Both the position numbers and the translations under genes were made by a program. Shown piece after piece: positions 11,623 to 54,908 of a stretch of DNA of 64,000 nt. Source of the DNA: Bdellovibrionia bacterium (GTDB taxonomy: Bacteria > Bdellovibrionota > Bdellovibrionia > Bdellovibrionales > JAGQZY01); contig JAUHWH010000004.1 in the NCBI GenBank assembly GCA_030424715.1, positions 32,437 to 96,436 on the forward strand, given 5' to 3'. The notes under the pieces are model-generated. The model was not told the DNA's origin. It searched no databases and saw only the letters and a program-made list of their open reading frames with translations. Position 1 is the first letter of the stretch. Each line of letters opens with the position of its first letter.

Positions 11623-11728
11623 CTCTTGGAGTTGGTGGCCTCTCGGCATTGATGGAAAGGGCGGGCTTTAGCAACCAAGACTTTCTAACACGACCACACA
11701 ATATGAGGCCTAGGGATTTGCCTAAGTC

Positions 11729-12307: not shown

Positions 12308-12529
12308 AATTGATTTTATAGTGAGGAGGCGCTATTGAATGCACCATTTTTCTTTGAAGTTTAGAAACTATGAAAGATTTTCAAGAAACGCTATCTGCGT
12401 GAGAATGTCTTCTGGTGCTTTGGGGGTGAGATGAATTGGGGACGGGGCGGTTTAGCCCTCGCGCTAAGAATGTCATGAAGCTACGAAAGAGGGTGGACAA
12501 ATTCAGAGGCTTTTTAGTAAGACCTCTGA

Positions 12530-40102: not shown

Positions 40103-41212
40103 CTAAAGATCCTGTCGTCGATAGAGGATTCTTTGCTGTGGATCAAGCATATGGCTTTGGGGGAACTTAGAGCAGCTTTTGCAGAGAGAGGAGTTCTGGG
40201 CGGGAATTTGAATTGTGGTTGGGAATGACTCATCAAGAATAAGATTAAAGCCTCTCGCCTGCCGGTGCTGCAGCTGCCAATGGCCTTGCTCGTCATATTC
40301 AATCACTAGAAAAGCCTGCGGGCTGCGCTCGTTCACAGATCCTGTGCCGATAAGGTAACGTGATCCACTCCCTAAAAGAGGAACGCTAATATACTGAGTG
40401 TGCTGATCGCGGCGTCCGGGGTAGTAGACATGAGAGTGGCCGCTAAAAAAAACATCCACTTTGTGGGCTTCAAAAAGGTCTTCCACTTTATTTAAAAATG
40501 CAGCGCTTCCACGAGCCACGTATTCCGTTTCTTTTTTAAAGGCAAATGGGAGAAGGGGCACGTGACCGTATACAAACTTGAGAGAGCGTTGACTCTCTTG
40601 AGTAAAGACTTTCTCAAGCCAAACGAGAGTGTTGTCTGACCAGTTTCGTACCGCCGTATTGTCAAGAGCTACAAAAAGAGCGTTTCCAATAGTTAGGGCG
40701 TACTGGAATGGAAAGTCTTGCTCCACTCCTTCGACCCATCTTATGTGCTTAGCCACACTCAGGGGGTTTTCTTGTAACCAACTGTTACGGTAGTGATCGC
40801 GTTCAATCTTTCGAGTTAAATGGGCGTCATGATTCCCGGGGGAGGGAAATAGTGGAATCTCTTTCTCGAGAAGCTTTCGAGTTACTGTTGAGTGAAAGGC
40901 TTCCCACATGCCTAGGTAGTCTAAGTTTTTCTTTTGTCCGGCCACCATGTCACCTGTGGATAGGATAAAATCAATTTTGTTATTTGCGTCCGCGAGATAG
41001 GAAACAGCACTTTTGACAGCCGAGTTATAGGTTTTGGAACCATAGCTACTGTTGAGGTCAGAGATGATGGCAAAGCGCCAAGTCTTAGTTGCCGTTTTCG
41101 GCTCGGCTTTTGTGGGGCCGGCTGCGGCTTCGTCTATTGTGGTTGGTGGTTGGCTGGCGTGGCCGCAATGAAGAAAAACGAATGAGACTAGTATGATAGA
41201 CAGAGATTTCAT
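40103..41212 (-). CDS. Exported calcineurin-like metallophosphoesterase
   Basis: Motifs SDLN.., GDMVAGQ, GNHD and GHSHVY. N-terminal signal/lipobox (FVFLHCG). Confidence 0.8.
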   Translation of the reverse strand: MKSLSIILVSFVFLHCGHASQPPTTIDEAAAGPTKAEPKTATKTWRFAIISDLNSSYGSKTYNSAVKSAVSYLADANNKIDFILSTGDMVAGQKKNLDYLGMWEAFHSTVTRKLLEKEIPLFPSPGNHDAHLTRKIERDHYRNSWLQENPLSVAKHIRWVEGVEQDFPFQYALTIGNALFVALDNTAVRNWSDNTLVWLEKVFTQESQRSLKFVYGHVPLLPFAFKKETEYVARGSAAFLNKVEDLFEAHKVDVFFSGHSHVYYPGRRDQHTQYISVPLLGSGSRYLIGTGSVNERSPQAFLVIEYDEQGHWQLQHRQARGFNLILDESFPTTIQIPAQNSSLCKSCSKFPQSHMLDPQQRILYRRQDL

Positions 41213-41746
41213 AGAGAGATCTTCTCAAACACTGCTTAATATTAGAATCCTAGACTATTCTTAGGTCCAGTAGTCCGAAATGGCGCGACACCAGTATCTT
41301 GATGCTCGGACAACCTGGGAGACGACGCCTGAAATACACCCAAGCATACCTTCTCGTCGAGATAGGAAGAGTATTTGCAACAGCGGTCCCACTTGCGATT
41401 TCAGACTGGATTTGTAAAGACCCACACCAAGATTCAATAAGTGTTTTCAAGGTTGATAAGCCGAGGCTATTTCCAAAACTTTTTGAAGAGTGTTCGGTGC
41501 TTTAAATTTGGGGGCGATTTTTAGAATTTACGCCGGTCCCGTAACCTTGAATTTTTAGCAACAGCCGACTGGGATCGCCCTTTAGGGTAGAACCGTCCGA
41601 TTCCTAGGGCTCGGACCTTTGTCCCGTTTTTTGGACGTGATATCCGGACAAATGAGTCTCTACAGCTTTTAGCTTTGATTTGGGCCACAAACAACTTTGG
41701 TACTAAGCTTGCTCTTACCTTTGATTGAAATGAGATCGGAGGAACC

Positions 41747-42409
41747 ATGAAAACCATACTCACTGTTTTAGTCACAATGTTTGCGGCGTCATCCGATGTT
41801 GTCGCTGCCACGTATTCAGAGGCACAGAAGACAATAACGGAGAATGAGGCCACCATTAAAAGCCTAAATGCCGAATTCTTAGCCTTACTGAGTCTAGATG
41901 AAAAATTGCAGACGGTGAGCGCGAAACTTGTAAACAAGAGTCATCTTCTCAACAACATGTTGATTGTTGCTGAACAAAACAAAGATAGTCTCGCTGGTCT
42001 TGGCTACTTTATTGAAGCAGAGCATTTTGAATTCTTCCAACTACCCGAAACCTTCCAAAATAAACGGCTCCAAGAGGTTGGAGCTGAGGCCCTTCCCGTA
42101 ATTTTTACTTTAATCGAAGATCTCGAAAAAGAGTCTTTCGAACTGCCGGCAGCTCCAACGAGAGAGGACATCGCAAACTTGAGTAGGAACACAATCAGTG
42201 TTTATCGAGCCGTTGCTAAGCAGATAACTTTGATCCAATTCCACATCAGTTTAGGGATGCAATACAAAAAAGCGACTATAGCAGGACTTAAGAGGGCGAA
42301 CAGATCACTGAAAGAGGTTCCAGCTCCGAAGAAGAAGCAGGAGAAAGTTGTTCAGCGGCCCCAAGACACCAAGCACTACTGGAACAGCCGAGGTTTGGCG
42401 GTGCCGTGA
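41747..42409 (+). CDS. Secreted alpha-helical protein (hypothetical), first gene of the 41.7-49.4 kb operon
   Basis: GGAGGA RBS. Signal peptide MKTILTVLVTMFAASSDVVAA. Coiled-coil-like sequence. Confidence 0.5.
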   Translation: MKTILTVLVTMFAASSDVVAATYSEAQKTITENEATIKSLNAEFLALLSLDEKLQTVSAKLVNKSHLLNNMLIVAEQNKDSLAGLGYFIEAEHFEFFQLPETFQNKRLQEVGAEALPVIFTLIEDLEKESFELPAAPTREDIANLSRNTISVYRAVAKQITLIQFHISLGMQYKKATIAGLKRANRSLKEVPAPKKKQEKVVQRPQDTKHYWNSRGLAVP

Positions 42410-42482
42410 ACACAAAAATGTAATGACTGAGAGAAAGACCAAACAAACAAGCCAACAAACAAAAAAAAGAAAGGAGATGAAA

Positions 42483-42944
42483 ATGAGAGCAATTTTACTA
42501 ATTTTAACAATACTAGTGGCCTCGGCCGGGAACACCGCCAATGCGGGGGTCTGCATCACAGAGGTGTATGGAAAAGGACTGATGTTGGAGGGGCACTCGA
42601 ACCTCCAGGGGGACGCAGGTGATATCTACCTAGCATCTTTGACCTGCCAAGAGCTCGAGGACATTAACAACGGAGTGCAGGTCGTTGCCATCGGCTTTTC
42701 TGGTGCGGGGATTTACGCGGCTTGCACTGGCGTTGGTCTACCGGCAACTGTCGCGTTAGAGACTGGGGCTTTGGCTCTATCGGCGATCGGATTGATCATC
42801 ACAAACCTAGATTGTGACGATAATGAAAGTGAAAAGATGATTAAAGAAAAAGTGGACCAAGCCGTTTGTGCTTCTTTAGAGGCCCAAGGTTTAGAATGTG
42901 TTCCACCCCTTAACCAAAACAACAACGATATATTTAGTATCTAA
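42483..42944 (+). CDS. Small secreted Cys-containing protein with a Gly/Ala-rich hydrophobic hairpin
   Basis: AAAGGAG RBS. Signal peptide MRAILLILTILVASAGNTANA. Central segment VVAIGFSGAGIYAACTGVGLPATVALETGALALSAIGLIITNL. Six Cys. Confidence 0.5.
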   Translation: MRAILLILTILVASAGNTANAGVCITEVYGKGLMLEGHSNLQGDAGDIYLASLTCQELEDINNGVQVVAIGFSGAGIYAACTGVGLPATVALETGALALSAIGLIITNLDCDDNESEKMIKEKVDQAVCASLEAQGLECVPPLNQNNNDIFSI

Positions 42945-42958
42945 AAAAGGAGACTATC

Positions 42959-43819
42959 ATGAATGTTAAAGTATTTTTTATAAGCTTACTCATTACAACC
43001 CAAGGATTTGCAAACGCTGTGGAAAGCGCACGTTGCGCATCACGTTTTGATTCTTTAGGGCAAGATGTTGCAAAAGGTCGAGCCTCCTGGGCTATTAAAT
43101 GCTTTCCTGATCTAAAGTGGCAAGCCGATGCGGATGGGCAGTTTTATTTGTTTGATGCTCAAAATCAGGTGAAGCAGCTCGGCTATCCAACCTTCATTAA
43201 GCTGGATGCCAATGGTGCCCCCCAAGAATGGGTTGCTCCCACTGATGCCAACGCTGGCTGTGTCAGTCCGGAGATTCACAAATTCGCGGGGTTTTGTCGT
43301 GCTGGTTGCTACACTCCAGATCAAATGCTTCTTTTTTCGGATGGTTATCATTCCATTGAGAGTGCTCGTCGCTCGCTACGAAGTGATATTGTTTCCGTAT
43401 CGCGGGACTCAACAATTGATCAGATCGACTTTCAACTGAGCGAGTTGCGGTCTTACACTGTCGACCCCAAAGCGAAACTGCAAGAGATTTTAACTATTAC
43501 AACTGAAGAAGGGGGCGAGTTGAAGGTGACTCTAAACCATCCTTTGGTCGTCAGTAGCGGTGATATTAAAGAGGCTCGTGACCTTAAGGTTGGTGACAAG
43601 TTGATCAGCGAAGCTGGCACGTTCGAGCCGATCCACTCTATTCAAGAAATTCAATATTTTGGAAAAGTATTGAATGTAGAACTGACCAATCGCAATCTTT
43701 TAAACAATATTGTAGTCGCGCAAGGTTACCTCAATGGGTCGGTTATGTATCAAAATACCGCCACAAAAGAAGTGAACAGACAAGTCTTGAGAACGTTGAT
43801 TCCTGACGCCATTTTGTAA
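42959..43819 (+). CDS. Secreted Hint (Hedgehog/intein-like, BIL-type) domain protein with a ~95-aa N-terminal domain
   Basis: Signal peptide. Hint block A at AG|CYTPDQMLLFSDGYHSIES (Cys117, codon 43307-09). TxxH block KVTLNHPLVV. ...DLKVGDKLIS... and terminal block NNIVVAQGYLNGS. Confidence 0.7.
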   Translation: MNVKVFFISLLITTQGFANAVESARCASRFDSLGQDVAKGRASWAIKCFPDLKWQADADGQFYLFDAQNQVKQLGYPTFIKLDANGAPQEWVAPTDANAGCVSPEIHKFAGFCRAGCYTPDQMLLFSDGYHSIESARRSLRSDIVSVSRDSTIDQIDFQLSELRSYTVDPKAKLQEILTITTEEGGELKVTLNHPLVVSSGDIKEARDLKVGDKLISEAGTFEPIHSIQEIQYFGKVLNVELTNRNLLNNIVVAQGYLNGSVMYQNTATKEVNRQVLRTLIPDAIL

Positions 43820-43864
43820 TTGACGAGGGGGCGAGGTCGCTCGCCCTTCTCTTTGGAGGTCCTT

Positions 43865-45844
43865 ATGTTGATCGTAGAATTAATGAAATTTGCTTTGCTC
43901 ACCTTTTTAGCTACAAGTTGTGTCGCCGCCCATACCGACCAACCTTCATCGCAGTCGCAAGTCAGTCCGCCATTGGTAGAAGCAGAGTTACCTATTCTGA
44001 CTTGTAAGAGAGTCACCGACATCGTTATTGAAAATAGTGATCAAGAGCCATTATGTGTGGACCCAAAAAGAGAGAATGTTTGCTTGCGCAATGATATAAG
44101 CTTTGTGGCGGCCCTTCAGCACCCTGAGAAAGCAATTTTTGAATCGTGCTTGATCTTCGGAGAACCGGCAAGTCTGGCCGCTCTGAATGTGACCCTCAAA
44201 AGAATGCCCGTACGTGTTGATCTTAATGTTGAGTTCAACGAGAAGCAGCGATTTGCCCATTGGGCGGATCAGCATCGAGTGCTACTGAAAGGTCTGCGAG
44301 GCTTTGCAACCAGTTCAAACTTTGGTGAGATTGTGTCTGTGAGTCAGACACCCAGTCCATTTCTTGTGCAAGGTGTTTTGGACCCGCAACTAATGAGTGT
44401 CGATTTCGAGTCAAGCCGTTCATGGCCTCATGCTCCTCAATTGTTAGGCTCTGTCACAGAGCTTATTAAGTACCTGCAAGCAGGAACCCTGAAGGAAAAA
44501 TTTCAAGGTCTTAACACCACTGAGGCTAGACTTCTGGAGTTGAGTAAAAATGCTCCGGTCACTGAGGTTGTTGAGACCTATCGTGAAAACGCCTGTCAAT
44601 CCACTTGCATTAAAGAGTCCGATAAAATCTCACTTGGATCGGGCCAAACATTTTTTAGAGAGTACTTTTCAAGAGGAACAGTCTACAGAAGTGAGTGGGT
44701 CCTTGAGAACTCCGATCAACAAATTGTTGGCTTGTTGTACATGGCAAAGAGCTTTCCCGCTCTATTTGCGAGAATCGAGCGCCACAGTTCCGGAGTCGCG
44801 AAGAGCATTGAGGTAATTAACCGGCAAGGGGCGGTGGTTTTTCAAAAACAGTGGGATATTTCTGATTTAGTGAAGCCGCAGCCTATCGAGGGCCTTGTGG
44901 ACTTCGACTCCATTGAACTACCCAAGGTGGGGTTGTGCGAAGAGTCTCTTGTCCCAGAAATTTTCACGGACCAACACCCTGAAAGTTTCATCTTGAGGGG
45001 CCCGCGTTCGCCAGACAGCTTTTACGGGTGGACGGATGGTTCACAATCGCTTTCAGGTCGAGAGTACGTCAACAAGCTATCTCTGCCGTTGGATCAGTTC
45101 TTTCTTGGTGAACATTCTTTGGATGTAGCCGGTGAGCTGGCGCAAGGAGAGCCGGTCGGCATCATACCTCTTGGGATCAGTGCCTGCCTCAAGCCAAGAG
45201 CCGCCCATGATTGGTGGCCGTCGTTTATCGAAAGTGGCACCCGTGTGATTAATCTGTCGGTGCGCAACCGTGATGACGAGCCAACCTGTCGTGAGTGGAT
45301 CAGGCAACATCCCATCGAGAGTGATCGTGAATCCGTGTTGTGGGTTGTGGCTGCAGGTAACCAAGGGGTTGATGGTCCCAATGGTTGTCCGCAGTATCTC
45401 TCCGGACGACCCAATATCATCGTGGTTGGCGCATCTCAGAGGGGCCGAGTGCACCCCAATAGCAACTACGGTGAAAGTTTAGTTGACATATTCGCTAATG
45501 GAAAAACGTTCGACGGTATGGCGTGGGGGACAAGTTTTGCAGCGCCTAAGGTGGCGAAGGTAGCAGCCGTGATTTTCGCACGCTTCCCGGACCTTACTGT
45601 GGAGCAAGTGAAGGCCGCAATTTTACTGTCAGTGGAGTGGCCGTGGCGAAAGTTGGAGTCCCGAACCGGTGGTGTTTTGGATGCGTCTTCAGCCCTTGAT
45701 TTAGCCGAGTTGATTAATCAAAAGCAGGGCAACATTGATCAAGCCCTCCAAGAAAAGTACGGGAATTTTATAATCAGCTATGAATACGAAAAGAGAAAAG
45801 AATTATGGAAGAAAATATTCAAAGGAGAAAAAAATGAAGAATAG
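43865..45844 (+). CDS. Lipoprotein with C-terminal S8 (subtilisin)-like domain
   Basis: ATG 43865 after GGAGG. Lipobox LTFLATSC. LWVVAAGNQG (oxyanion Asn box) and AWGTSFAAPKVAKVAA (Ser box). The Asp box looks altered (see findings). Confidence 0.65.
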   Translation: MLIVELMKFALLTFLATSCVAAHTDQPSSQSQVSPPLVEAELPILTCKRVTDIVIENSDQEPLCVDPKRENVCLRNDISFVAALQHPEKAIFESCLIFGEPASLAALNVTLKRMPVRVDLNVEFNEKQRFAHWADQHRVLLKGLRGFATSSNFGEIVSVSQTPSPFLVQGVLDPQLMSVDFESSRSWPHAPQLLGSVTELIKYLQAGTLKEKFQGLNTTEARLLELSKNAPVTEVVETYRENACQSTCIKESDKISLGSGQTFFREYFSRGTVYRSEWVLENSDQQIVGLLYMAKSFPALFARIERHSSGVAKSIEVINRQGAVVFQKQWDISDLVKPQPIEGLVDFDSIELPKVGLCEESLVPEIFTDQHPESFILRGPRSPDSFYGWTDGSQSLSGREYVNKLSLPLDQFFLGEHSLDVAGELAQGEPVGIIPLGISACLKPRAAHDWWPSFIESGTRVINLSVRNRDDEPTCREWIRQHPIESDRESVLWVVAAGNQGVDGPNGCPQYLSGRPNIIVVGASQRGRVHPNSNYGESLVDIFANGKTFDGMAWGTSFAAPKVAKVAAVIFARFPDLTVEQVKAAILLSVEWPWRKLESRTGGVLDASSALDLAELINQKQGNIDQALQEKYGNFIISYEYEKRKELWKKIFKGEKNEE

Positions 45845-46532
45845 GACAGTCGCTATTTTTGTCGCGGTTTCGACGATGTTGGTTGTGCTGAGCACCCTGT
45901 GGTTGCAGACCAGTCGAAAGCAGAGGTCAGAAGAGAGAACCAATCGGTTGATTGAAAAAACCGTTAAAGAACGAGTTGATCATTTGAAAATAGAAAAAGC
46001 TACACCGGTTGATGATAGTTCCGCAAAGCATGTTGGAGAGAAACCTTCGGGTATTGATGCTTATTTGTCTAAGATAGAAAAGATTATTCGACTAGAACGC
46101 AAGGTGATTCGAAGTGCTTCGGACAATTCGAGTCTAGAGAAAGCCTTAGCTAATCGAAAGTTGATCAACCAATCCTTGTTGTTTCTAAGTGATGTGGAAC
46201 TTGTGGGTTCTCTTGGTCTCAAGGGCAACCAAGAGCTCAGGATGCAGGCAACGCTATTTTTGTCTCGTGCCTTGGAGTGGCAACAAAACCCTGAGCTTCC
46301 TTGGATACTCGACAAGGTGGGCGACTTTGTGGGTGCTGACAGTCTCAGTGCTATTAAAGATCTTGAAGTCCGCCGCTCTTTTGCTGCCGATAAAGTCGAG
46401 TTGTTTACCAATTTAAAAGATATTTATTTCGAAAAGGGTCTGCAGATTGAACATGAGAATCAGTCAGAAACCAACGCGCGACTCTTTCGCTTTGCCAACA
46501 ATTTTTATAAACTGAATAAACGGGAGATTTGA
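45834..46532 (+). CDS. N-terminally membrane-anchored alpha-helical protein (hypothetical)
   Basis: ATG 45834 after AAAGGAG, overlapping the upstream gene by 11 nt. TM segment VAIFVAVSTMLVVLSTLWL. Confidence 0.5.
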   Translation: MKNRTVAIFVAVSTMLVVLSTLWLQTSRKQRSEERTNRLIEKTVKERVDHLKIEKATPVDDSSAKHVGEKPSGIDAYLSKIEKIIRLERKVIRSASDNSSLEKALANRKLINQSLLFLSDVELVGSLGLKGNQELRMQATLFLSRALEWQQNPELPWILDKVGDFVGADSLSAIKDLEVRRSFAADKVELFTNLKDIYFEKGLQIEHENQSETNARLFRFANNFYKLNKREI

Positions 46533-46533
46533 A

Positions 46534-49392
46534 ATGAGAATTCTAATGGTATTATTTTGTCTAAGCTTTCCGATGATAGCGTTTGCTAATCATAGTCTAC
46601 CAGCCGGAGAGGATAAAGAGGCCGTGCTAGGGATGGGTTTTGATTCTGAAAAAGAGAAGTTCACGGGAACCTGTCTCAAAGGAAAGCTGGTGCGTCGAGG
46701 AAAGCAAGAGGCGAATGTCGCTTTCGAACAAAGTTTAGATCAAAACTCTATGAAAAAAGAGCTGGGTATTGATGCTGGGACCCGATTTCGCTATGGCGAG
46801 GCAACGGTGAAAGCCAGCGCCAAGTTTATGAAATCCAGTCGTAGTGACGGATTTTCTATTTCTGCCGTTTATTCGGGCGACTACAAATTTAAAAACGATA
46901 TTCTTTACTTCGAGGATTCTGCGGACACTCAAGATATAAAGGGGCTTGAGAAACAAAGGTTAACTGATATCGGGAAAGCTGTGCGAAATGACGATGATCG
47001 CTGGCGTGAAACCTGTGGTGATGAATACGTCACGCAAATTGTGCGAGGGGCGAAGTTATTCTATTCAATTAAAATCGAATTTTTAACACAAGAAGAAAAG
47101 GACCTGTTTGAAACGGCCTTTAGTTATGATTCCACATTTGCTTCTGTGAAAGCCAGTCTGAAAAACATTTCTGAGAATTTCAGTAAAAGAACAAAAATCA
47201 CGGTCGGGGCTTTGCAAATTGGTGGGGACACGCGAAAAATTACCGAACTCTTTTTCGACAACAAAGAAACTGGTGACAGTAGTTCAATGGGATTTGTGAA
47301 ATGTTCATTTGGGGACCTTGCCAAATGTGACCAGGTGATGGCTAATGCGATTCGCTACGCCACCAAAGACTTTAAAGACCAACTGGAGTCAAAACCGGAT
47401 CAGCCGAGCTACGAGGGTGGACCCGCAGACCTACGCTATATTACCGCTCCCTATGCTGATGCTGGAATTTTTCCAAAGTTTTCTTCGATTTTAACCGCAG
47501 CAGTCCGAGCGAAGCGATGGGAACTAGAGACCTTGTTTGATCGTCTCATGGACAACCTAGGTACGGTCAATTCCCTGTTAACCTCAAGTTCCGTGGTTTT
47601 GAGCCCGAGGCAAAATGGACTCCTAAAGACGGTGAAGCAAGAACTCGACAAAGACGTCAGAAGCCTCATTTTGGCGGCAGAGACTTGTTACAACTCTGTC
47701 GAGGAGTGTGTTGCCACAGCGGATTCGATCACACCAAAACTGAGTGAGTTTGATGAGAATTCAGTGATCATTTTACCTGAAACCTTTCGACAGTACTGTG
47801 CCCGGTCAGAGAGTACCCTTTCGACTAAAAAGCTAAGCACCTCGATTCGGGGGATGTTGGATGCTGCTCGAGAAATCGAGCCAGACAGCTTTAGTAGTGA
47901 TCCTGGGGGCAAGACAGATTCTTGTTTGCAGGCTCATAATGTGTTTATGAGAAATAACGAGATAAGAACGTTTTCTGGTAAAAAAATTAGTACGTTGGTG
48001 CCTCTACAGGAATATAGCCATTTTGTAGCCGTCGACTTTTCTGAGAACTCTATCGATGACCTCGAGCCGCTCCACGACTGGAAAAACCTGGAGGAGTTGG
48101 ACTTAGGCGACAATAAGATTCGCGATCTGGTTTTTTTAGAGAGACTCGTTAACTTGAGGTTATTATCCTTAAGCAACAACCACCTGCGAGACATCAGTCT
48201 TTTAACAAAACTCCCCATGCTTGAGCGGGTTGATGCGAGAAACAACTTCGAGACGGTGAGCTGTCAGAGCTTTTCGCAAGACGTTGTTTGCCTTAGTGCA
48301 ACCGTGCGGACTGACGCGAAGTTTGTCCATACGTCGACGACAACATCTCGACCACTGTTTATGCCGTCTTTAGTGGATTTGCGGGGTGGGGAGTTCTTGG
48401 TCCTCAGTGATAACCAAGATGTGCAAACTTACCGTTTGGCTGACAATAGCTTTAGTATCACGGGACGTTTGAGTCTTAAGTCTCGTGGTCGGGTCGCGAC
48501 ACAGTTGGCTGATGGTGACATTTTGATCACCGGCGGTTGGTTGTCGGGTAATTCTTTAGCTATTTACAACCCAGAGCTTGGCCAGATGATGCAAGAGTTC
48601 AAAGGGCTGCAGGTACAGCGTGTTGGACACACCAGCACACTTCTTGACGATGGACGTGTGCTTTTGGCGGGCGGCTGGGAAGGCGGAGTGAGTTTCTCCG
48701 GGACAGATGCCACTTATACGGCTGAGGTTTTTGATCCCGAGACAAATTCGACTTATCCGGTGGGCAACCTGCATGCACCAAGAGCTTGGCACACAGCAAC
48801 TAAGCTCTTCGACGGGAAAGTTCTGATTGTTGGTGGCTTTGACTGGAGCAGCGGTATCGCCACGGCCGAGATCTTTGACCCCGAGACCAATGAATTCACT
48901 CAGCTAGAATATTCTATGGCACAAGGGCGTGGGGCTCACTCAGCCACTGTGCTGGCCAGCGGAAAGATCTTACTCGCCGGGGGATTTGATTTGGGTGCCC
49001 AGGCCATTGATCGTGCTGAGCTGTTTGATCCTGCGGTCGGTAAATTTTTGCCCATCAAAGAGACTTTGAATTGGGCTCGCGGCATGCACTCAGCAGTGCG
49101 ACTCAATAATGGCAAGGTTCTATTGGCGGGTGGTTCTGTTGAGCCTTTTGCTCCGGACCATCCCGTCGATTTCACTCCCAATGATCATATCGATCGCGGT
49201 GAGCTTTATGACCCTGTTGAGAACAGCTTTATGAAGGTACCAGGAAAGATGGCTGTTCCGAGAGCACGCCACGGAATGTATGAAACCAAACCCGGAACCG
49301 TATTAATTATGGGTGGTTTAACCTGGGAATCAGCAAATAAGCTCGAAATCTTTAACTATGTGGATGTGAATACAACTTCACCACTGCAGTGA
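46534..49392 (+). CDS. Secreted MACPF-like pore-forming domain / leucine-rich repeat / six-blade Kelch protein
   Basis: Signal peptide. MACPF-like LGMGFDSEK... and CGDEYVTQIVRGAKLF (compare the (Y/W)GTHYvxxxxxGG signature). LRRs NLEELDLGDNKIRDLVFLERLVNLRLLSLSNNHLRDI. Six Kelch units of the type DGxvLxxGG(w/f). Confidence 0.7.
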   Translation: MRILMVLFCLSFPMIAFANHSLPAGEDKEAVLGMGFDSEKEKFTGTCLKGKLVRRGKQEANVAFEQSLDQNSMKKELGIDAGTRFRYGEATVKASAKFMKSSRSDGFSISAVYSGDYKFKNDILYFEDSADTQDIKGLEKQRLTDIGKAVRNDDDRWRETCGDEYVTQIVRGAKLFYSIKIEFLTQEEKDLFETAFSYDSTFASVKASLKNISENFSKRTKITVGALQIGGDTRKITELFFDNKETGDSSSMGFVKCSFGDLAKCDQVMANAIRYATKDFKDQLESKPDQPSYEGGPADLRYITAPYADAGIFPKFSSILTAAVRAKRWELETLFDRLMDNLGTVNSLLTSSSVVLSPRQNGLLKTVKQELDKDVRSLILAAETCYNSVEECVATADSITPKLSEFDENSVIILPETFRQYCARSESTLSTKKLSTSIRGMLDAAREIEPDSFSSDPGGKTDSCLQAHNVFMRNNEIRTFSGKKISTLVPLQEYSHFVAVDFSENSIDDLEPLHDWKNLEELDLGDNKIRDLVFLERLVNLRLLSLSNNHLRDISLLTKLPMLERVDARNNFETVSCQSFSQDVVCLSATVRTDAKFVHTSTTTSRPLFMPSLVDLRGGEFLVLSDNQDVQTYRLADNSFSITGRLSLKSRGRVATQLADGDILITGGWLSGNSLAIYNPELGQMMQEFKGLQVQRVGHTSTLLDDGRVLLAGGWEGGVSFSGTDATYTAEVFDPETNSTYPVGNLHAPRAWHTATKLFDGKVLIVGGFDWSSGIATAEIFDPETNEFTQLEYSMAQGRGAHSATVLASGKILLAGGFDLGAQAIDRAELFDPAVGKFLPIKETLNWARGMHSAVRLNNGKVLLAGGSVEPFAPDHPVDFTPNDHIDRGELYDPVENSFMKVPGKMAVPRARHGMYETKPGTVLIMGGLTWESANKLEIFNYVDVNTTSPLQ

Positions 49393-49404
49393 TTGTAAAG
49401 GGAG

Positions 49405-49425
49405 AGGGGCCGCCGGCTGAGGCCC
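49405..49425. terminator. GC hairpin between convergent genes (terminator-like)
   Basis: GGGGCC-N9-GGCCCC, 12 nt after the stop of the MACPF gene. No strong T-run. Confidence 0.35.
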
Positions 49426-49443
49426 CGATTCTAATGACCCGGA

Positions 49444-49821
49444 TTATTTCCTATTCATCTCTCTGCGTCGCATGGGCATCGCATCTATAGCGTTGTAAAT
49501 CGACCCCATTGGCGTTGGTTCCAAATACTCTTGTTTGATCGTCCCGTCTTTTCCAATCAACAGCATTTTAAACTCACCGTTTTGAAAGCGAAACTTTTTC
49601 CACAACTCTGATTCACTTTCACTAACAGGCAATAGCAAGAGGTCTCGGTCAGAGGTTTCTGCCGGATCAGCAGCAAAAGTCTTCTTTTGCACAGAGAGGC
49701 CCTGTTCGGCAGAGCTATTCACAACCAAAAGCCTATTAGTCCACTTGTAGCTGTCCAAATCCATAGGTTCTCCTAGGGCCGGTAAAACACACAAAATGAG
49801 TGCCATCACGAAGATTTTCAT
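49444..49821 (-). CDS. DUF4174-domain secreted protein
   Basis: ATG 49821 gives the signal peptide MKIFVMALILCVLPALG. YKWTNRLLVV...MLLIGKDGTIK...IDAMPMRRREM. Confidence 0.6.
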   Translation of the reverse strand: MKIFVMALILCVLPALGEPMDLDSYKWTNRLLVVNSSAEQGLSVQKKTFAADPAETSDRDLLLLPVSESESELWKKFRFQNGEFKMLLIGKDGTIKQEYLEPTPMGSIYNAIDAMPMRRREMNRK

Positions 49822-49907
49822 AGATTCACGTATAGCGAATAATTGGATGGAGGTCAGTGAAAAGTTAAAATAGTGACAGACTCCCATTTTTTGGTGATGA
49901 TAGCGTC

Positions 49908-50267
49908 ATGACGACTTCACTTCTCACGTATTTGGCATTCGCTATTGGTAGTGTCGCTTTTATAATAGGCCTCTTAGCCATGTTGTTACCGACCAAGATG
50001 AGCGAAGGATTTGGTATTGCAGTCTCAGGGGCGGGCGTTCACTACGTTCGAGCTTTAGGAGTTCGAGATGTCTTTGTGGGGCTCGTGGTATTATTGCTTG
50101 GGTATTACGAGCAATGGACATCTCTAGGCTACGTATGTATTGCCATAGCCATTGTCGCAGCCAGTGATTTTTATACAGTCTTTCGGTACGGCCAACGCCA
50201 AGCCAGTTTCGCGCACCTGGCAGGTTTTGTTTTAAGCCTGGTGTTCTCGGCAGTCTTTTTTTGGTGA
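49908..50267 (+). CDS. DUF4267-like small membrane protein
   Basis: Four hydrophobic helices. ...RALGVRDVFVGL... pattern. Confidence 0.5.
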   Translation: MTTSLLTYLAFAIGSVAFIIGLLAMLLPTKMSEGFGIAVSGAGVHYVRALGVRDVFVGLVVLLLGYYEQWTSLGYVCIAIAIVAASDFYTVFRYGQRQASFAHLAGFVLSLVFSAVFFW

Positions 50268-50718
50268 CCCACATCCCTTGTACCTAAACCTATCAATAGA
50301 GTTCACTATTCGGCCGAGTAGATCTCCGACGTCGTTTGGAGTGGCGGTAACCTCTGCGAAACGCCACGAAAGCCTACCCTAGAACTGAGCACCATAGGCC
50401 CTAGCTGTAAGAAACTAGAGAATAAGCGCCAGATTGACTGAAGCCAATTATCGTTTATTCAGGTTCAAAGCAAGTAAGTCATTTTCTCTGAAGAGGTAGA
50501 AGTGGCATTTCACGGCCAAGAAGGTTGATTTAATTGTATCGCAGCTGAGAGTTTGCTCTATTTTTGTCCGGAATTCGGAATACTCAGCCTAAGTAGTGGA
50601 AATTAGATAAGTTAGTGGGTGTAAAATTACCAATATAAAGTGTTTAAATTGACTCAAAAATGCATATTCCATACAAGAGGTCCCTATGAACCTTGAGATT
50701 AACAAAGGGAAATATTAG

Positions 50719-51047: not shown

Positions 51048-52097
51048 ATGAACTTTCTTGGAGACGCCCATAATTTTGGACAAAAAGTTAACAGGGAAGA
51101 CGACATCGTCAAAAAGCCACGTCCCGTCTTTTGGGAGTGGCTTTTTTTAGATACGGAAAGTGAGTTAAGACAGCTTCTCTCAAAAAGATCTCGGTTAGTC
51201 AGTACAGAAGACCCATTTTTATCATTTCCAAATTTGAATGTTAAAGAAGCCCCTGGGCTTCATGGTTTTCCGGCGGGAGTCGTTGATTACTTTCAAACGA
51301 CTGTTCCGGAAAAATCAGCAATGACTGATTCGTTAGCGAAAGCTGTTGGAAGAGCGATAGGAGTTGCTCATTTTTTTGGTCTCAGTGACCTTCATATTGA
51401 AAACTTTGGTGTTTCACAAATTACAAATGGCTGTTTCTTCTTTCCATTGGATATCGAAGTTATATTCAATCGTCTCAAATTAGCTTCTCAAACCTATATT
51501 TTAGACAGCGTAAAGAATGAATCTAAGATTGTTGGTCTGTCTTTGATGAGAAACAAAAACTTAAATATAGCGGCAGTTATTAGTAGTTACCTGCTGACCA
51601 TAGAGTTTTTGAATACTAATTTGAAAGAAATTAACGATGTTCTCGTTAAGTTAAATGTGAAAAGTATACCGATCAGGTGTATTGTGAAGCCATCGATGGA
51701 GTATGCTGATTATCTCAGGACCGATAACATCGAGTCCTCGGTCTTTTACCCAGAGGAACTGGAGCAGCTCGAGAGAGGGGACATCCCCTATTTTTTTCAC
51801 TATCTGGGCGACTATAGCATTAGATATTTAACTAAGGATGGCGAGAAAGTTACGAGTTTTTCATGGGAAGATGTATTCAAAATGGATTTGATATCGGAAA
51901 GTCAAATTGAACAACCAGTGTCTGTAGTTGATGAAAATGCAATAAAAGCCTCGATTCTGCAGATAGCAAGAACTTTAGACACTACCGTTGAGAATGACTT
52001 TTCGTTTGAAGCCACAACTGTTTCGTTTCAGGGTGACTCAATTTTTATAAAGTGTGGAACGGGTTGGAAGCTGAAATGCCAAAGGATGTCAAAATAG
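51048..52097 (+). CDS. Stand-alone DUF4135 protein (LanM N-terminal kinase/dehydratase-like domain, no LanC cyclase domain)
   Basis: LGDAHNFGQKV...IVKKPRP; GLSDLHIENFGV...FFFPLDIEVIF; IRCIVKPSMEYADYL; ELEQLERGDIPYFF. These blocks parallel those of class II lanthipeptide synthetase N-domains. No signal peptide. Confidence 0.6.
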   Translation: MNFLGDAHNFGQKVNREDDIVKKPRPVFWEWLFLDTESELRQLLSKRSRLVSTEDPFLSFPNLNVKEAPGLHGFPAGVVDYFQTTVPEKSAMTDSLAKAVGRAIGVAHFFGLSDLHIENFGVSQITNGCFFFPLDIEVIFNRLKLASQTYILDSVKNESKIVGLSLMRNKNLNIAAVISSYLLTIEFLNTNLKEINDVLVKLNVKSIPIRCIVKPSMEYADYLRTDNIESSVFYPEELEQLERGDIPYFFHYLGDYSIRYLTKDGEKVTSFSWEDVFKMDLISESQIEQPVSVVDENAIKASILQIARTLDTTVENDFSFEATTVSFQGDSIFIKCGTGWKLKCQRMSK

Positions 52098-53566
52098 CTA
52101 GATCTGCCCTCGTGTTTTTTCTTTTCATCCAAGCAAATCTTTCGGTGGCTTCTTCCGAGTTAGGTGTTGCTATACCTTCCTATATTGAAACCTATGAACC
52201 GAGTAAAGGGTGGAGCTTTTACCAACGTTTTATTATGAATTGCGTGTATCAGCGACTTTTCTCAATTGACCAGTTCGGTCAGGTTGAAGGTGAGCTTGCC
52301 GAGAGCTGGTTCTTTTCAAAATCTGGTAAGACTCTTACCTTAACAGTGTCTGATAAAGCGCGCTTCAGCGATGGTTCACCGGTTACCCTTGATGATATAT
52401 TCCTGTCATTGTCAAAACCGTTTGCGACTCCCGAAGATAGTTATGTTAACAGAGTTCTCGGGCCAGCTATGGGCTTGAGGGCTCCATTAAAAGTGGGTGA
52501 GATTCTTCCCAATCTTAAGCGGTTGGGTGGCCGCAGTTTTGCGATTGAGATGCAGCAAGTCTACCTTCCACTTATTGATATTCTGGGTAGCTACCTTTTT
52601 CCTGTGATGAAAACTACGGATAACTTACTCGGTTCAGGACCTTACATAGCGAAAAAAGAGAGACGAGGCCTGTGGACCCTCTATACAAATCCCTTTCATC
52701 AGGAGGGTGCTAAAAAAATTAAGAAAATAAAAATTTTGACGGAATTCTCGCAAGAAAAAGTCCAAAAATTGATTCAAAACAAAGAGATACACTTTGCTAT
52801 GGGATTCCACCTTCGAGACCTCCAGGATCAAGAAGGGACCTTCACAATCAAAAAGGTTTTGAAAGCAGGTTACAATCATTTCTATTTCAACCTCGAGAGT
52901 AGGTCTCTAAAAGATAAAAGTTTTAGAGCTTATCTTGGGCATATACTTAAAGACGTAGCAAGAAACCATTACTCACGGTTTGAGGAGTTCGTGCCACGAT
53001 TGCTTCCTCGAGGGCTACTACCCCTCGCTTATCATTCGCAGACGGTTGCGGCCCCAAAAGTCACCTTGCAACAAACGAAACTAAATATGCCAAGGTCGCG
53101 GATTAAGCTTTTATTTGTTGGGCGACACTTTGCGGATGGATTCTTCGAAGAGCTTCAAGCAGCTTTAGATAAGTCAGGCATAGATGGGAATATTGAGATT
53201 TTAAAAGGACCAGAGTATAACAAAGTAATACAAGAGAGAAAATTTGATGTGATTTCTTACCCGGTGATTCCTTCTTATCATGATCCAGATGGTTATTTTG
53301 CTGACCCAACCTATTTTTCAATTTGTGGTGATAAAAGGACCTGCCCCTATAAAAAAATGCTTTTAGCGGCAAGGTATGTAAAAGACAAGACGAAAAGAAG
53401 CGACCTTTTTTCTAAACTTTTTCGTAAAATTGAGTCGGATTGGATTCTTGTGCCTGGCTTCAAGACATCTATTCCGATTGCTATTTCAAATGATTTGATT
53501 TTGCCTCCGATTAACTACCGTGATCAGGTGAAGCTTTGGAAAATGGAGTTCAGAAATGCAAAGTAG
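52076..53566 (+). CDS. Periplasmic solute-binding protein, family 5 (peptide/nickel-type)
   Basis: Signal peptide. ...GELAESWFFSKSGKTLTLTVSDKARFSDGSPVTLDDI..., typical of SBP_bac_5. Overlaps the upstream gene by 22 nt. Confidence 0.7.
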   Translation: MPKDVKIARSALVFFLFIQANLSVASSELGVAIPSYIETYEPSKGWSFYQRFIMNCVYQRLFSIDQFGQVEGELAESWFFSKSGKTLTLTVSDKARFSDGSPVTLDDIFLSLSKPFATPEDSYVNRVLGPAMGLRAPLKVGEILPNLKRLGGRSFAIEMQQVYLPLIDILGSYLFPVMKTTDNLLGSGPYIAKKERRGLWTLYTNPFHQEGAKKIKKIKILTEFSQEKVQKLIQNKEIHFAMGFHLRDLQDQEGTFTIKKVLKAGYNHFYFNLESRSLKDKSFRAYLGHILKDVARNHYSRFEEFVPRLLPRGLLPLAYHSQTVAAPKVTLQQTKLNMPRSRIKLLFVGRHFADGFFEELQAALDKSGIDGNIEILKGPEYNKVIQERKFDVISYPVIPSYHDPDGYFADPTYFSICGDKRTCPYKKMLLAARYVKDKTKRSDLFSKLFRKIESDWILVPGFKTSIPIAISNDLILPPINYRDQVKLWKMEFRNAK

Positions 53567-54908
53567 CACTCCAAATTTGAAAAATAAGATTATTCTCCCC
53601 ATCATAGTTTCGAGCTTGATTATCCTTTCTTTTTTCACGGTTGTTTTATTTTTTACCTTTAATGATAAGCTCCTTGAGATTTCCAGTAGACAATATGAGG
53701 CTACTCTAGAGGTTTTTTCCAGGTCCATCCGTGATAGTTTTCTTAGAGGGCTCGATGGAGAAGTAAACCAATACTGTCGACTTATCCTCGCTGATGAGAA
53801 TGTTTCTTATGTTTCCGTGACTCGTGCTGATGGTGGAAAGATTTGTGATCTCCGGGGCGATAGGCCTTATGATCAGGCGATTGTTTTAGAAAGAGATATT
53901 CGTTTTAAAAAAGGTGGCGAGTCAGCTGGAGTTGTGGAAGTGCATTTCAATAGTGCGTATTATGGGTTGTTGATTGTTTATTTGGCATTGTCTTTATTTC
54001 TCTCGTTGTTTCTTTCCGTTATTCTATTCTCTTTCTTTGGCTCTAAATTCATAAGTCAGCAGATCGAACCCTTCTCACACCTAGCCGATCGTCTTTTTAG
54101 AGGGAAGGTTGAGGAACTTCAGGAGATTAACAAGATGCCGGGGGCCAATAGAAATTTCGAAATCCGAAGCTTAACAGATGGGGTCTCTTTCTTGGCGAAC
54201 TCCTTTATTTCCTATCAAGGAGAGATGGTAAAGTCGGAACGCCTCGATGCGATCAATGAGTATTCGAGATTGATTGCTCACGATATTAAAGCGCCAATAG
54301 CAGGAATTAAAGCAGGGGTGGATCATTTTAAAGCAAAGCCAGAAGCTTCCTTGAGGTTAATCTCTAGGAGTCTTGAGCGTATTGAATTCATGGTTGAGAG
54401 AATCCTAGAAAAAAATAAAATTGATGGGATTAAGCCGGAGCTGGAGCTCGTAAACTTCCAGAGTTGGTTTTTCACCTTAGAAGCGCCGTCTTTTGACGAG
54501 CTGGGGTATGATGAATCTAAACTCGAATTTGAACTGGTTGGTGACAAGAATGATGTTCTTTGCTTAGTCGATAGAGATCTCTTACTGCGAGCGGTATTAA
54601 ACTTACTAAAAAACTCGAAGGAAGCTATAGAGTCCACGGTAAAACCAAAGGTTCATGTAAAGGCGACATTGTCAGAAAAAGTGGTTATGCTTGAGATTAG
54701 AGATAATGGGCCTGGTTTCCCAAAAGAAGTTCTTGAAAACGTGGGGTCTCAAGGACTTACAATCGGTAAAGAAGGTGGAAGTGGGCTTGGAATCTATCAG
54801 GTCAAGAGGTCTGTGGAAATCATGGGAGGCGTGTTCTCGATTTCCAATCCGGTGGCGGGAGGAGCTTTTGTGGAGATTCATTTGCCCGTAAATAGTGGGA
54901 GTTTATAG
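53556..54908 (+). CDS. Sensor histidine kinase (2 TM, ~130-aa periplasmic loop), with no cognate response regulator nearby
   Basis: H-box SRLIAHDIKAPIAGI. N-box LLKNSKEA. DNGPGF and GGSGLGIYQV ATP-lid motifs. Overlaps the binding-protein gene by 11 nt. Confidence 0.85.
   Translation: MQSSTPNLKNKIILPIIVSSLIILSFFTVVLFFTFNDKLLEISSRQYEATLEVFSRSIRDSFLRGLDGEVNQYCRLILADENVSYVSVTRADGGKICDLRGDRPYDQAIVLERDIRFKKGGESAGVVEVHFNSAYYGLLIVYLALSLFLSLFLSVILFSFFGSKFISQQIEPFSHLADRLFRGKVEELQEINKMPGANRNFEIRSLTDGVSFLANSFISYQGEMVKSERLDAINEYSRLIAHDIKAPIAGIKAGVDHFKAKPEASLRLISRSLERIEFMVERILEKNKIDGIKPELELVNFQSWFFTLEAPSFDELGYDESKLEFELVGDKNDVLCLVDRDLLLRAVLNLLKNSKEAIESTVKPKVHVKATLSEKVVMLEIRDNGPGFPKEVLENVGSQGLTIGKEGGSGLGIYQVKRSVEIMGGVFSISNPVAGGAFVEIHLPVNSGSL

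Follow-up and report, generated by a model that had tools for sequence, protein, structure and literature searches.

The window, a stretch of 64,000 nucleotides from a Bdellovibrionia bacterium (contig JAUHWH010000004.1), carries an open reading frame (ORF) of 952 amino acids at positions 46534-49392 of the + strand, which runs from an ATG to a stop codon and has a GGGAGA Shine-Dalgarno sequence 8 nt 5' of the ATG. Along this ORF, the order of modules is signal peptide, MACPF/CDC-like domain, helical bundle, LRR, and Kelch propeller. Directly upstream lies the gene for a small partner (45780-46532, +, 250 aa as listed), which has a membrane anchor at the N-terminus and a conserved C-domain, and 1 nt separates its stop codon from the start of the 952-aa ORF. 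ATG 45834 is a likelier start for the small partner than the listed one, and the protein matched no Pfam, NCBIfam, or PADLOC family. The next gene upstream (43820-45844, +) encodes an S8-like (subtilase) peptidase (Pfam Peptidase_S8, E=2.8e-18), a probable lipoprotein whose listed TTG start is probably too early, with ATG at 43865 or 43886 as the candidate starts. The His, Asn, and Ser motifs and a lipobox-type Cys are conserved in the peptidase, and a conserved Cys-Glu is found at the position of the canonical Asp motif, which is missing. A secreted Hint-domain protein of 286 aa (42959-43819, +) was recognized by the Pfam models Intein_splicing (E=5e-6) and PT-HINT (E=2.9e-4), and its AGC-(Y/F)TP nucleophile and TxNH block are conserved. 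The run of same-strand genes begins with those for two small signal-peptide proteins (41747-42944, +; 41747-42409 and ~42480-42944). They had no family matches, have orthologues solely in the closest locus, L003 (28% and 60% identity), and are doubtful members of the cassette. The surrounding genes are ordinary chromosomal genes.

The first 19 residues of the 952-aa protein (46534-46590, +; MRILMVLFCLSFPMIAFA, followed by NH) read directly as a Sec-type signal peptide, with one basic residue, a hydrophobic core, and an A-F-A end. Over the full length, the protein is 67% and 48% identical to its orthologues at loci L003 and L004, respectively. Ten cysteines past the signal peptide are invariant in an alignment of nine orthologues with LRR and Kelch modules, a pattern that fits an exported, disulfide-bonded protein.

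The C-terminal half consists of two well-recognized binding modules. Residues 471-590 (47944-48303, +) form four to five internalin-type LRRs of 22 residues and a Cys-containing cap, of which four units (LxxLxLxxNxIxDIxxLxxLxx) are clearly legible in the sequence and the cap residues C577 and C586 are invariant in orthologues. Pfam LRR_4 matched residues ~480-575 (E=1.2e-11) and LRR_8 was also matched, while sequence matches in the PDB included a Roco LRR (E=3e-29) and internalin A (E=1.4e-22, aa 474-565). This agrees with the original prediction, which was made from the DNA letters and had placed internalin-like repeats at ~47950-48250. Residues 612-952 (48367-49389, +) form a six-bladed Kelch beta-propeller, matched at aa ~660-930 by Pfam Kelch_1, Kelch_4, and Kelch_6 (E=5e-21 to 1.5e-16) and also by Kelch_2 and Kelch_3 (weakest Kelch match E=1.6e-8). 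The PDB matches of this module were KLHL20, Keap1, and the designed six-blade SAKe proteins. The six units predicted earlier at ~48490-49330 were thereby recovered, each with its GG pair (GDILITGGW, GRVLLAGGW, GKVLIVGGF, GKILLAGGF, GKVLLAGGS, and GTVLIMGG). A degenerate set of strands at aa ~612-655 probably closes the propeller.

The N-terminal part is different, in that residues 1-478 had no Pfam match even at E<=10, and no Pfam, NCBIfam, or PADLOC model matched the N-domain. None of 72 family members matched Pfam MACPF (PF01823) or CDC at E<=1. The Pfam CDC model Thiol_cytolysin was not matched either, and in place of CDC domain 4, with its undecapeptide and cholesterol-recognition motif, the C-terminal part has LRR and Kelch modules. 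The predicted structure of this domain (aa ~30-312, 46621-47469, +) was of high quality (AF2, pLDDT 90.2, pTM 0.86), and all top 50 Foldseek matches of the model in the PDB belonged to the MACPF/CDC superfamily. The best were stonustoxin (E=1.9e-6), the fungal Aegerolysin-L (Aeg-L) pore (E=2.1e-5), and pneumolysin (E=9.5e-5), followed by Bth-MACPF (E=1.2e-4) and C8β (E=1.8e-4), all with a probability of 1.00. In a viral structure library, the six best matches were all MACPF (MAC/perforin) proteins of giant viruses, and they were the sole significant ones. The original prediction of a MACPF layout at residues ~30-330 was therefore borne out by predicted structure and fold search, although the domain is not a member of Pfam MACPF.

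Strand and helix assignments in the model (DSSP) give strand 59-66, three helices within 70-102, strand 108-118, helices within 135-161, strand 164-182, two helices within 186-212, and strand 221-229. This order is predicted with high confidence to be that of the MACPF/CDC core, in which two helical clusters flank a central bent sheet, the arrangement proposed earlier as the test of the assignment. At the same time, the matches to solved structures had low TM-scores (0.2-0.33), RMSD of 8-22 Å, and modest E-values, and the likeness of the modelled domain to MACPF/CDC structures is one of fold only. These values, together with the lack of a Pfam match and an hhalign probability of 1.7%, would suit an unrelated alpha/beta domain with generic secondary-structure similarity. 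We consider such an artefact very unlikely, since an earlier model from a low-depth alignment gave the same exclusive PDB match list as the model from the deeper alignment, the independent viral library returned MACPF proteins alone as significant, and both the topology and the conserved Gly positions agree with the superfamily. Moreover, the best PDB profile matches, although marginal, were Aeg-L (E=0.017) and stonustoxin-beta (E=0.3), the same two structures that lead the fold search.

The original prediction had also placed CGDEYVTQIVRGA where the MACPF signature is expected, and profile alignments put it in register with YGDRFIADFIKGG of the solved Aeg-L pore and with YGDCFITDFVRGG of a fungal relative. 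The strings quoted in that prediction are all present, with LGMGFD at aa 32-37 and CGDEYVTQIVRGAKLF at aa 161-176, in addition to the Kelch units. The family signature, C-G-D-E-Y-x6-G-A (aa 161-173, 47014-47052, +), lies where the long core strand begins. Relative to the MACPF signature, the spacing, the first Gly, the aromatic residue, and one Gly are retained, but D-E replaces T/S-H and Ala the second Gly. C161, G162, and G172 are fully or almost fully conserved, and the signature, whose general form in the family is C-G-x-x-Φ-x6-G-A, occurs in 143 of 154 members. None of these 154 members has the strict MACPF signature Y/W-G-T/S-H-F/Y-x6-G-G. The CDC/CDCL motif F/Y-F/Y-Xn-YGR, which in that family is situated where core strands 2 and 3 bend (PMC7527733), is likewise missing from all 154, and YGR was found anywhere in just three. 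A second conserved element, Q-x-G-G (aa 228-231, 47215-47226, +), lies where the fourth core strand ends (model strand 221-229), occurs in 153 of 154 members, and is invariant in A2, A3, and A5. CDCs and CDCLs have a conserved Gly pair after core strand 4 (PMC7527733). Q-x-G-G resembles this pair in position and may correspond to G324-G325 of PFO. With 2,474 clusters at 50% identity, the N-domain family is large, distinct, unnamed, unannotated, and outside PF01823.

Stonustoxin (SNTX, 4wvm) and Aeg-L (9uj0), which represent divergent MACPF/CDC branches, were thus the nearest structures both by Foldseek and by profile. A motif ET-C/Y-GD-x-Y/F-x6-G-A/G is common to the 952-aa protein, Aeg-L, and the fungal relatives. 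Stonustoxin is built of a MACPF/CDC domain and a helical (FAT-like) bundle, followed by thioredoxin and PRYSPRY domains, and Aeg-L acts with an aegerolysin partner. In the 952-aa protein, the pore-forming-type domain is followed by a modelled helical bundle (aa 313-470, 47470-47943, +; helices 322-350, 358-387, 389-402, 432-448, and 463-473). The Foldseek match to stonustoxin extended over 458 columns and therefore covered both the pore-forming domain and the bundle, and in an HMM alignment the bundle was weakly co-linear with residues 252-321 of stonustoxin-beta. The first two modules of the stonustoxin order are thus consistent with those of the 952-aa protein (sequence E=0.3), whereas Pfam detected neither a thioredoxin nor a PRYSPRY domain in it. 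The protein further differs from stonustoxin and Aeg-L, to which its identity is ~10%, in being bacterial, Sec-exported, Cys-rich, and terminated by LRR and Kelch modules, and sequence statistics do not establish homology to either.

Both helical clusters have the features of candidate transmembrane hairpins. The first (candidate TMH1, aa 67-107, 46732-46854, +) has helices 70-77, 83-89, and 94-102 between strands 59-66 and 108-118, and the second (candidate TMH2, aa 183-220, 47080-47193, +) has helices 186-195 and 202-212 between strands 164-182 and 221-229, giving segments of 41 and 38 residues. Hydropathy averaged over the family had a period-2 power of 1.81 at aa 72-87 and 1.24 at aa 186-201, compared to <=0.66 in helical regions beyond aa 240. 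In the first cluster, the alternation of hydrophobic and polar residues is legible in ELGIDAGTRFRYG and TVKASAKFM. Judged from the model and this periodicity, both clusters could refold as membrane hairpins.

Some MACPF-fold proteins are not known to form pores, astrotactin and others among our matches being examples. The 952-aa protein might accordingly be a non-lytic surface adhesin or recognition protein, with the LRR and Kelch modules binding prey or matrix and the N-domain having a structural, oligomerising, or signalling role. This would account for the strict MACPF and CDC motifs missing throughout the 154 members, for the structural matches to astrotactin-2 and other proteins of no known lytic activity, and for public annotations that see internalin-like or kelch features alone. 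We nevertheless regard it as unlikely, because the N-domain is the most conserved module (77% and 58% identity to L003 and L004, compared to 58-66% and 43-55% for LRR and Kelch), the hairpin-type amphipathic periodicity is kept family-wide in both clusters, the hinge-type glycines G172 and G230-G231 are invariant, and the gene is tightly linked to those of a protease and a small membrane protein, as in the lytic BSAP and CDCL systems. Rather probable, in our assessment, is that the Sec-exported product of ~105 kDa is built as a receptor-targeted beta-barrel pore-former. From these features we infer that its function is most likely that of a receptor-targeted pore-former, for which activation by a protease is possible.

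The domain order, of which the original prediction was aware of no characterised case, is not confined to this protein. It turns up repeatedly in Bdellovibrionota, and N-domain, LRR, and Kelch were found together in 27 of the 153 best family representatives. The named hosts of this class are a Bdellovibrionales MAG, a Pseudobdellovibrionaceae MAG, and Halobacteriovorax marinus, all members of Bdellovibrionota. The cassette of S8-like peptidase, Hint protein, and small partner was present at seven of eight independent LRR+Kelch loci, the S8 and Hint genes being missing at L017, and absent from 12 loci of other classes of the N-domain family. Orthologues of the small partner lie directly upstream of the candidate pore-former gene at L003, L004, L014, L015/16, and L018, and weakly at L017. 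Those of the peptidase were found at L003, L004, L014, L015/16, L018, and L020, and those of the Hint protein at L003, L004, L015/16, L018, and L020.

A pore-former-like gene adjoining a subtilase recalls an intracellular abortive-infection effector of the gasdermin-plus-protease type, in which the protease frees the pore-former and the infected cell dies, and the S8 partner did weakly match generic PADLOC subtilase and IetS models (E=8.6e-5 to 1.5e-3). Such a role appears extremely improbable here, given that the 952-aa protein itself had no match among PADLOC defence systems and that the neighbourhood is an ordinary chromosomal one. In addition, a signal peptide, a lipobox, or a membrane anchor is found in every cassette protein, and cysteines are conserved, and therefore the cassette proteins would act outside the cytoplasm.

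Closer functional precedents for a receptor-targeted pore-former are found among antibacterial toxins. BSAPs combine a MACPF domain with a receptor-binding C-terminal domain aimed at outer-membrane proteins or LPS, and these C-terminal domains are variable, some being propeller-like glycan binders (PMC12853789). BSAP-1 is directed at a receptor, is activated by a protease, and assembles into a 13-mer beta-barrel (bioRxiv 10.64898/2026.08.05.742979). The 952-aa protein resembles BSAPs (BSAP-1, Bt_3439) in its N-terminal fold, with 3kk7 among the top five Foldseek matches, and in having a Gram-negative producer. However, BSAPs match PF01823 and are surface lipoproteins of Bacteroidota, whereas the 952-aa protein has no PF01823 match, a plain signal peptide, and LRR and Kelch modules, and is encoded together with an S8-like protease, a Hint protein, and a small membrane protein of its own. 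A surface lipoprotein protease activates CDCLs, and BcdI, an immunity lipoprotein whose gene lies immediately upstream, blocks them (PMC11169675). The likeness to Bacteroidota CDCLs lies in the superfamily fold (8g32 and 6nal were among the Foldseek matches) and in the parallel between their ~30 kDa envelope-anchored immunity protein and lipoprotein protease and the small upstream partner and S8-like lipoprotein of the cassette. The locus differs in having one pore-former-like gene instead of a long/short pair, and its protease is S8-like and co-encoded, while CDCLs are cut by a C11 protease that belongs to the target cell. No family match pointed to homology between the cassette partners and BcdI.

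In the proposed mechanism, the LRR and Kelch modules would attach the protein to a target cell by way of a protein or glycan on its surface, and the docked N-domains would then oligomerise as a ring, in which the two amphipathic clusters would turn into beta-hairpins and enter the membrane to give a large beta-barrel. The co-encoded S8-like lipoprotein peptidase would process or activate the pore-former, and the small membrane-anchored protein would protect or chaperone the producer. These last two roles are proposed because of the conserved linkage and the analogy with BSAP-1 and CDCL toxins, and are inferred by analogy, not homology. The linkage to both a subtilase and a Hint protein suggests a processing step of a kind that is not known from any MACPF/CDC toxin.

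Since all named hosts of the architecture belong to Bdellovibrionota, the target is most likely the envelope of prey bacteria, which is the least supported step of the explanation. The same pore mechanism might instead be aimed at eukaryotic grazers or hosts, such as protists and small animals. Eukaryotic proteins are classic ligands of both internalin-type LRRs and Kelch propellers, the nearest structures are eukaryotic or eukaryote-directed toxins (stonustoxin, Aeg-L, CDCs), and the wider N-domain family also occurs in non-predators (Paraburkholderia, Pseudarthrobacter, Acidobacteriota, and cyanobacteria). We hold a eukaryotic target to be unlikely, as the LRR+Kelch class with the cassette has so far been named in Bdellovibrionota only and the closest functional precedents, MACPF/CDCL toxins that have receptor domains, are activated by proteases, and are preceded by an immunity gene, are antibacterial. 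Returning to prey bacteria, we tentatively propose, as a possibility that is still doubtful as a whole, that the four-gene cassette (Hint, S8-like peptidase, small protein, and MACPF/CDC-like-LRR-Kelch protein) is a predator-specific, receptor-targeted, pore-forming weapon with which Bdellovibrionota, both Bdellovibrionales and Halobacteriovorax, breach or kill Gram-negative prey, the pore-former being activated by the co-encoded protease and the producer shielded by the upstream partner, and that it would be the founding characterised member of a large bacterial MACPF/CDC branch of ~2,500 clusters nearest to fish stonustoxin and the fungal aegerolysin-partner pore.

The way in which predatory bacteria breach the envelope of their prey is not yet fully understood, and an exported pore-former cassette conserved in distant predator lineages would be a concrete candidate, with one member in the cultured Halobacteriovorax marinus SJ (WP_014244349.1). 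The N-domain represents a large bacterial family of predicted perforin/CDC fold that is missed by current domain databases. Its recognition would widen the reach of the superfamily and provide a bacterial link to stonustoxin-type and fungal aegerolysin-partner toxins. Public names such as 'internalin A-like exported protein' or 'kelch repeat-containing protein', both given to the H. marinus orthologue, reflect the internalin-family LRR and bacterial Kelch proteins that match the C-terminal half, and overlook the N-terminal 470 aa, the most conserved part, with its predicted pore-forming fold. Thousands of proteins now called 'hypothetical', 'internalin-like', or 'kelch repeat' could thus be re-annotated.

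The gene under study is a 952-aa ATG-to-stop open reading frame whose coordinates in the ORF list are exactly 46534..49392 (+), as the original prediction had placed it, with a GGGAGA ribosome-binding site 8 nt upstream of the ATG; the gene before it ends, stop codon included, 1 nt 5' of this ATG. The peptide strings quoted in that prediction were all found in the protein, and its LRR and six-unit Kelch modules were confirmed by Pfam, PDB sequence matches, and direct reading. Pfam matched LRR_4 (E=1.2e-11) and LRR_8 at aa ~480–575 and Kelch_1, Kelch_4, Kelch_6, Kelch_2, and Kelch_3 (E=5e-21 to 1.6e-8) at aa ~660–930. The PDB sequence search matched the LRR part to a Roco LRR domain (E=3e-29) and internalin A (E=1.4e-22), and the Kelch part to KLHL, Keap1, and designed six-blade Kelch proteins. 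Direct reading of the sequence showed four clear 22-residue repeats of the internalin type and six Kelch units with GG, and the propeller is probably closed by a degenerate strand set at aa ~612–655. Cysteine was invariant at 10 positions across nine aligned LRR+Kelch orthologues, as would suit a protein that is exported and disulfide-bonded. An exact look-up of the protein among public assemblies gave no match.

For aa 1–478, no Pfam match was found even at E ≤ 10, nor did the N-terminal part match anything in NCBIfam or PADLOC. A word-indexed search of 5.8 billion proteins returned five relatives of the N-domain, the MACPF/CDC-like front part of the protein. The extreme rarity that this indicated was overturned by an exhaustive HMM search from the alignment of these five, which yielded 2,474 cluster representatives at E ≤ 0.001, of which 539 reached E ≤ 1e-30. 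The family is large and simply lacks annotation; a Paraburkholderia RefSeq member is named 'hypothetical protein'. Neither the strict MACPF signature nor the CDC/CDCL motif F/Y-F/Y-Xn-YGR (as defined in PMC7527733) occurred in any of 154 family members, and CDC/CDCL membership was rejected because of the absence of the latter. The members share the motifs C-G-x-x-Φ-x6-G-[AG] (143/154) and Q-x-G-G (153/154), and no Pfam MACPF or CDC match at E ≤ 1 was found among the 72 members scanned.

The fold predicted for the N-domain is that of MACPF/CDC domains, and this model-based assignment is solid. AlphaFold gave a mediocre model from six sequences (pLDDT 59) and a confident one from 109 sequences (pLDDT 90.2, pTM 0.86), and for both models alike the 50 best Foldseek matches in the PDB all belonged to the MACPF/CDC superfamily. 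Matches of the confident model were led by stonustoxin alpha (E=1.9e-6) and beta (5.2e-6) and the Aegerolysin-L pore (2.1e-5), and other leading matches were pneumolysin, Bth-MACPF 3kk7, complement C8beta, perfringolysin O, TgPLP1, Plu-MACPF, MPEG-1, C6, C9, CDCL, and astrotactin-2. A search of an independent viral library gave six matches at E ≤ 0.05, all of them giant-virus proteins annotated MAC/perforin. DSSP of the model followed the order of the MACPF/CDC core from N to C: a strand (aa 59–66), three short helices (aa 70–102), a strand (aa 108–118), helices (aa 135–161), a 19-residue strand (aa 164–182), two helices (aa 186–212), and a strand (aa 221–229). The two helical clusters span 41 and 38 residues, and their family-averaged hydropathy showed the period-2 alternation expected for amphipathic segments able to form beta-hairpins. 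TM-scores to solved structures were low (0.2–0.33), so the relation lies at the fold level and is distant from every solved member. These scores might suit the rival explanation that the fold call is an artefact, against which stand the uniform PDB matches of both models, the viral proteins, and the core-like order of elements. The original MACPF call thus stands as to fold and falls as to Pfam MACPF membership: the N-domain is a new, separate family of the MACPF/CDC superfamily, outside Pfam MACPF, CDCs, and CDCLs.

Within the superfamily, the family is nearest to the branch of stonustoxin and Aeg-L, which head both the profile and the fold searches; the profile statistics are marginal, yet they agree with the fold result. 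Seventeen diverse N-domains were combined in a profile whose top two PDB matches were Aeg-L (E=0.017) and stonustoxin-beta (E=0.3, along two stretches in co-linear order) and which placed the family motif CGDEYVxQIxxGA opposite YGDRFIADFIKGG of Aeg-L. When alignment A5 of the N-domain was compared by hhalign with the longest fungal Aeg-L-relative fragment, the signature motif alone was aligned, opposite YGDCFITDFVRGG (E=0.029, probability 1.7%). Both alignments fall on the site where the MACPF signature had originally been located. All that the search for Aeg-L relatives recovered were short pieces of fungal genes lacking Pfam domains, so that no proper Aeg-L family profile was possible. Aeg-L (PDB 9uj0), the closest solved structure by sequence, belongs to a fungal family whose relatives (P0174–P0179), including an Ascochyta hypothetical protein, also carry no Pfam domain. 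The Foldseek match to stonustoxin covered 458 columns and was accompanied by a weak HMM stretch, which suggests, without proving, that the helical bundle at aa 313–470 corresponds to the helical domain following stonustoxin's pore-forming domain.

Among the best 153 of the 2,474 cluster representatives, 27 had the N-domain + LRR + Kelch architecture (858–1020 aa, all but one 933–1020), 72 had the N-domain with LRR, and 54 had another C-terminus or none. Four of these 54, found among the 72 family members scanned, carry LGFP repeats, and these and other C-termini in other phyla suggest that the same putative pore-forming module has been retargeted by domain swapping. The domain order, for which the original prediction was aware of no characterised case, is a recurrent, lineage-associated architecture within a conserved four-gene cassette. 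With this correction and that of family membership, the overall interpretation as a putative targeted pore-former was supported. Our literature search found no description of the N-domain family, the LRR+Kelch fusion, or the cassette.

Within the LRR+Kelch class, the MACPF-like module (aa 30–312) was the most conserved part, with identities of 77% and 58% to the proteins of two related loci, L003 and L004, respectively, compared with 56% and 39% for the helical bundle (aa 313–470), 58% and 55% for the LRR (aa 471–585), and 66% and 43% for the Kelch part (aa 612–952). A genome scan, based on alignment A2 since A3 was too diverse, used one genome per species and a single peptide pattern and was non-exhaustive, missing Halobacteriovorax marinus. 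It recovered close relatives in two MAGs, one from Bdellovibrionales (68% identity) and one from Pseudobdellovibrionaceae (50%), and distant N-domains in Bryobacterales, Terriglobia, Paraburkholderia, Pseudarthrobacter, Actinomycetota, and one cyanobacterium. The LRR+Kelch representative of H. marinus SJ (CBW26568.1 / WP_014244349.1) is annotated as 'putative internalin A-like exported protein' or 'kelch repeat-containing protein'; public annotations recognise the LRR and Kelch parts alone. With every named host of the full architecture in Bdellovibrionota, a member of this phylum is very probably the source of the window. Two same-strand N-domain paralogues lie ~1.7 kb apart on an unclassified bacterial contig (L011, 3260–4279 and 6001–7050) and could form a two-component arrangement like the CDCL long/short pairs. 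A Terriglobia MAG copy (L010, 6001–7107) has an in-frame stop; either the copy is a pseudogene or the stop is a sequencing error.

The target closes a series of genes on the same strand whose junctions are tight or overlap. Directly before it lie genes for a Hint-domain protein with a signal peptide (42959..43819, +), an S8-like peptidase (43820..45844, +), and a small protein whose N-terminus forms a membrane anchor (45780..46532, +). Orthologues of all three occupied the same positions at L003 and L004. HMMs built from the cassette orthologues were used at more distant LRR+Kelch loci and found all three partners in H. marinus (L018) and at L015/L016, where the S8 and Hint order was swapped; the S8-like and small partners at L014; the small partner only at L017; and Hint and S8-like proteins plus a positionally equivalent 161-aa gene at L020. 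At the 12 loci of other architectural classes (L001, L002, L005–L013, L019) none of the three was found, and BLAST of the window's small partner against the upstream genes at L001 and L002 showed no similarity. The linkage of the LRR+Kelch class to the partner genes is thus demonstrated. No paralogue of any cassette gene occurred elsewhere in the window. A promoter and terminator consensus scan of 41000–50400 found sites no more numerous than in shuffled sequence, so the operon boundaries are those given by gene spacing only.

In the S8-like protein, the His, Asn, and Ser motifs are retained, a lipobox-type Cys is conserved, and the canonical Asp-motif position is taken by a conserved Cys-Glu in 5/5 orthologues; the listed TTG start of its gene is probably too early, with an ATG at 43865 or 43886. 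At L020, a second S8-like paralogue (11082–12971) lies just downstream of the pore-former gene, besides the upstream one. The Hint protein consists of a signal peptide, a Cys-rich ~95-aa N-domain, a nucleophile region of AGC followed by (Y/F)TP(D/E)Q, a TxNH block, a C-terminal (Y/F)QN, and a ~20-aa tail. The Cys nucleophile (AGC before Y/F-TP) and the TxNH block are conserved, and the whole layout suggests autoproteolysis or thioester chemistry outside the cytoplasm. The small membrane-anchored protein matches no family, has conserved C-terminal motifs (NQ..RM..FL, AADK.ELF, FA.NFY.LNK), and is always directly upstream of the pore-former gene, often overlapping it; immunity and chaperoning are its candidate roles. 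Two small signal-peptide proteins, one with a Gly/Ala-rich hydrophobic stretch, head the gene run (42480–42944 and 41747–42409, both +) and have orthologues only in the closest locus, L003.

By observation or confident prediction, the target is exported and combines a MACPF/CDC-fold domain bearing two amphipathic helical clusters with LRR and Kelch binding modules; its function we wholly infer. The LRR and Kelch modules would dock on a ligand of the target surface, the N-domain would oligomerise, and the helical clusters would refold into hairpins and form a beta-barrel. In BSAPs, which are MACPF toxins, the C-terminal domain alone decides which outer-membrane proteins or LPS glycans serve as receptors (PMC12853789), and BSAP-1 forms a receptor-targeted, protease-activated, 13-mer pore (bioRxiv 10.64898/2026.08.05.742979). 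CDCL toxins require cleavage by a surface lipoprotein protease and are inhibited by the lipoprotein BcdI, encoded immediately upstream of the pore-former (PMC11169675). By analogy, the cassette resembles these systems in its putative pore-former, lipoprotein protease, and small envelope-anchored protein directly upstream, but the parts show no detectable homology and the Hint protein is extra. A non-lytic MACPF-fold adhesin, a rival explanation, would also use the binding modules, while the hairpin-type amphipathic periodicity of the clusters and the BSAP/CDCL-like gene arrangement argue for a pore-former. What points to a prey-directed role for such a pore-former is host taxonomy only (3/3 named hosts of the full architecture are Bdellovibrionota), and a toxin against eukaryotic grazers, another rival, would also fit the predicted domains. 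A gasdermin-like defence effector was rejected because all cassette components are exported and PADLOC assigned no defence system.

Elsewhere the window resembles ordinary chromosome, with genes for RecQ, a DEAD-box helicase, PEP carboxylase, and an MFS transporter, and Rfam and tRNA scans of the window returned nothing. A same-strand run at 51048–57013 (+) encodes a DUF4135 protein resembling the LanM N-terminal region, a family-5 solute-binding protein, a histidine kinase, and an S9 prolyl oligopeptidase; it looks unrelated to the cassette and may be a peptide-processing or sensing locus.
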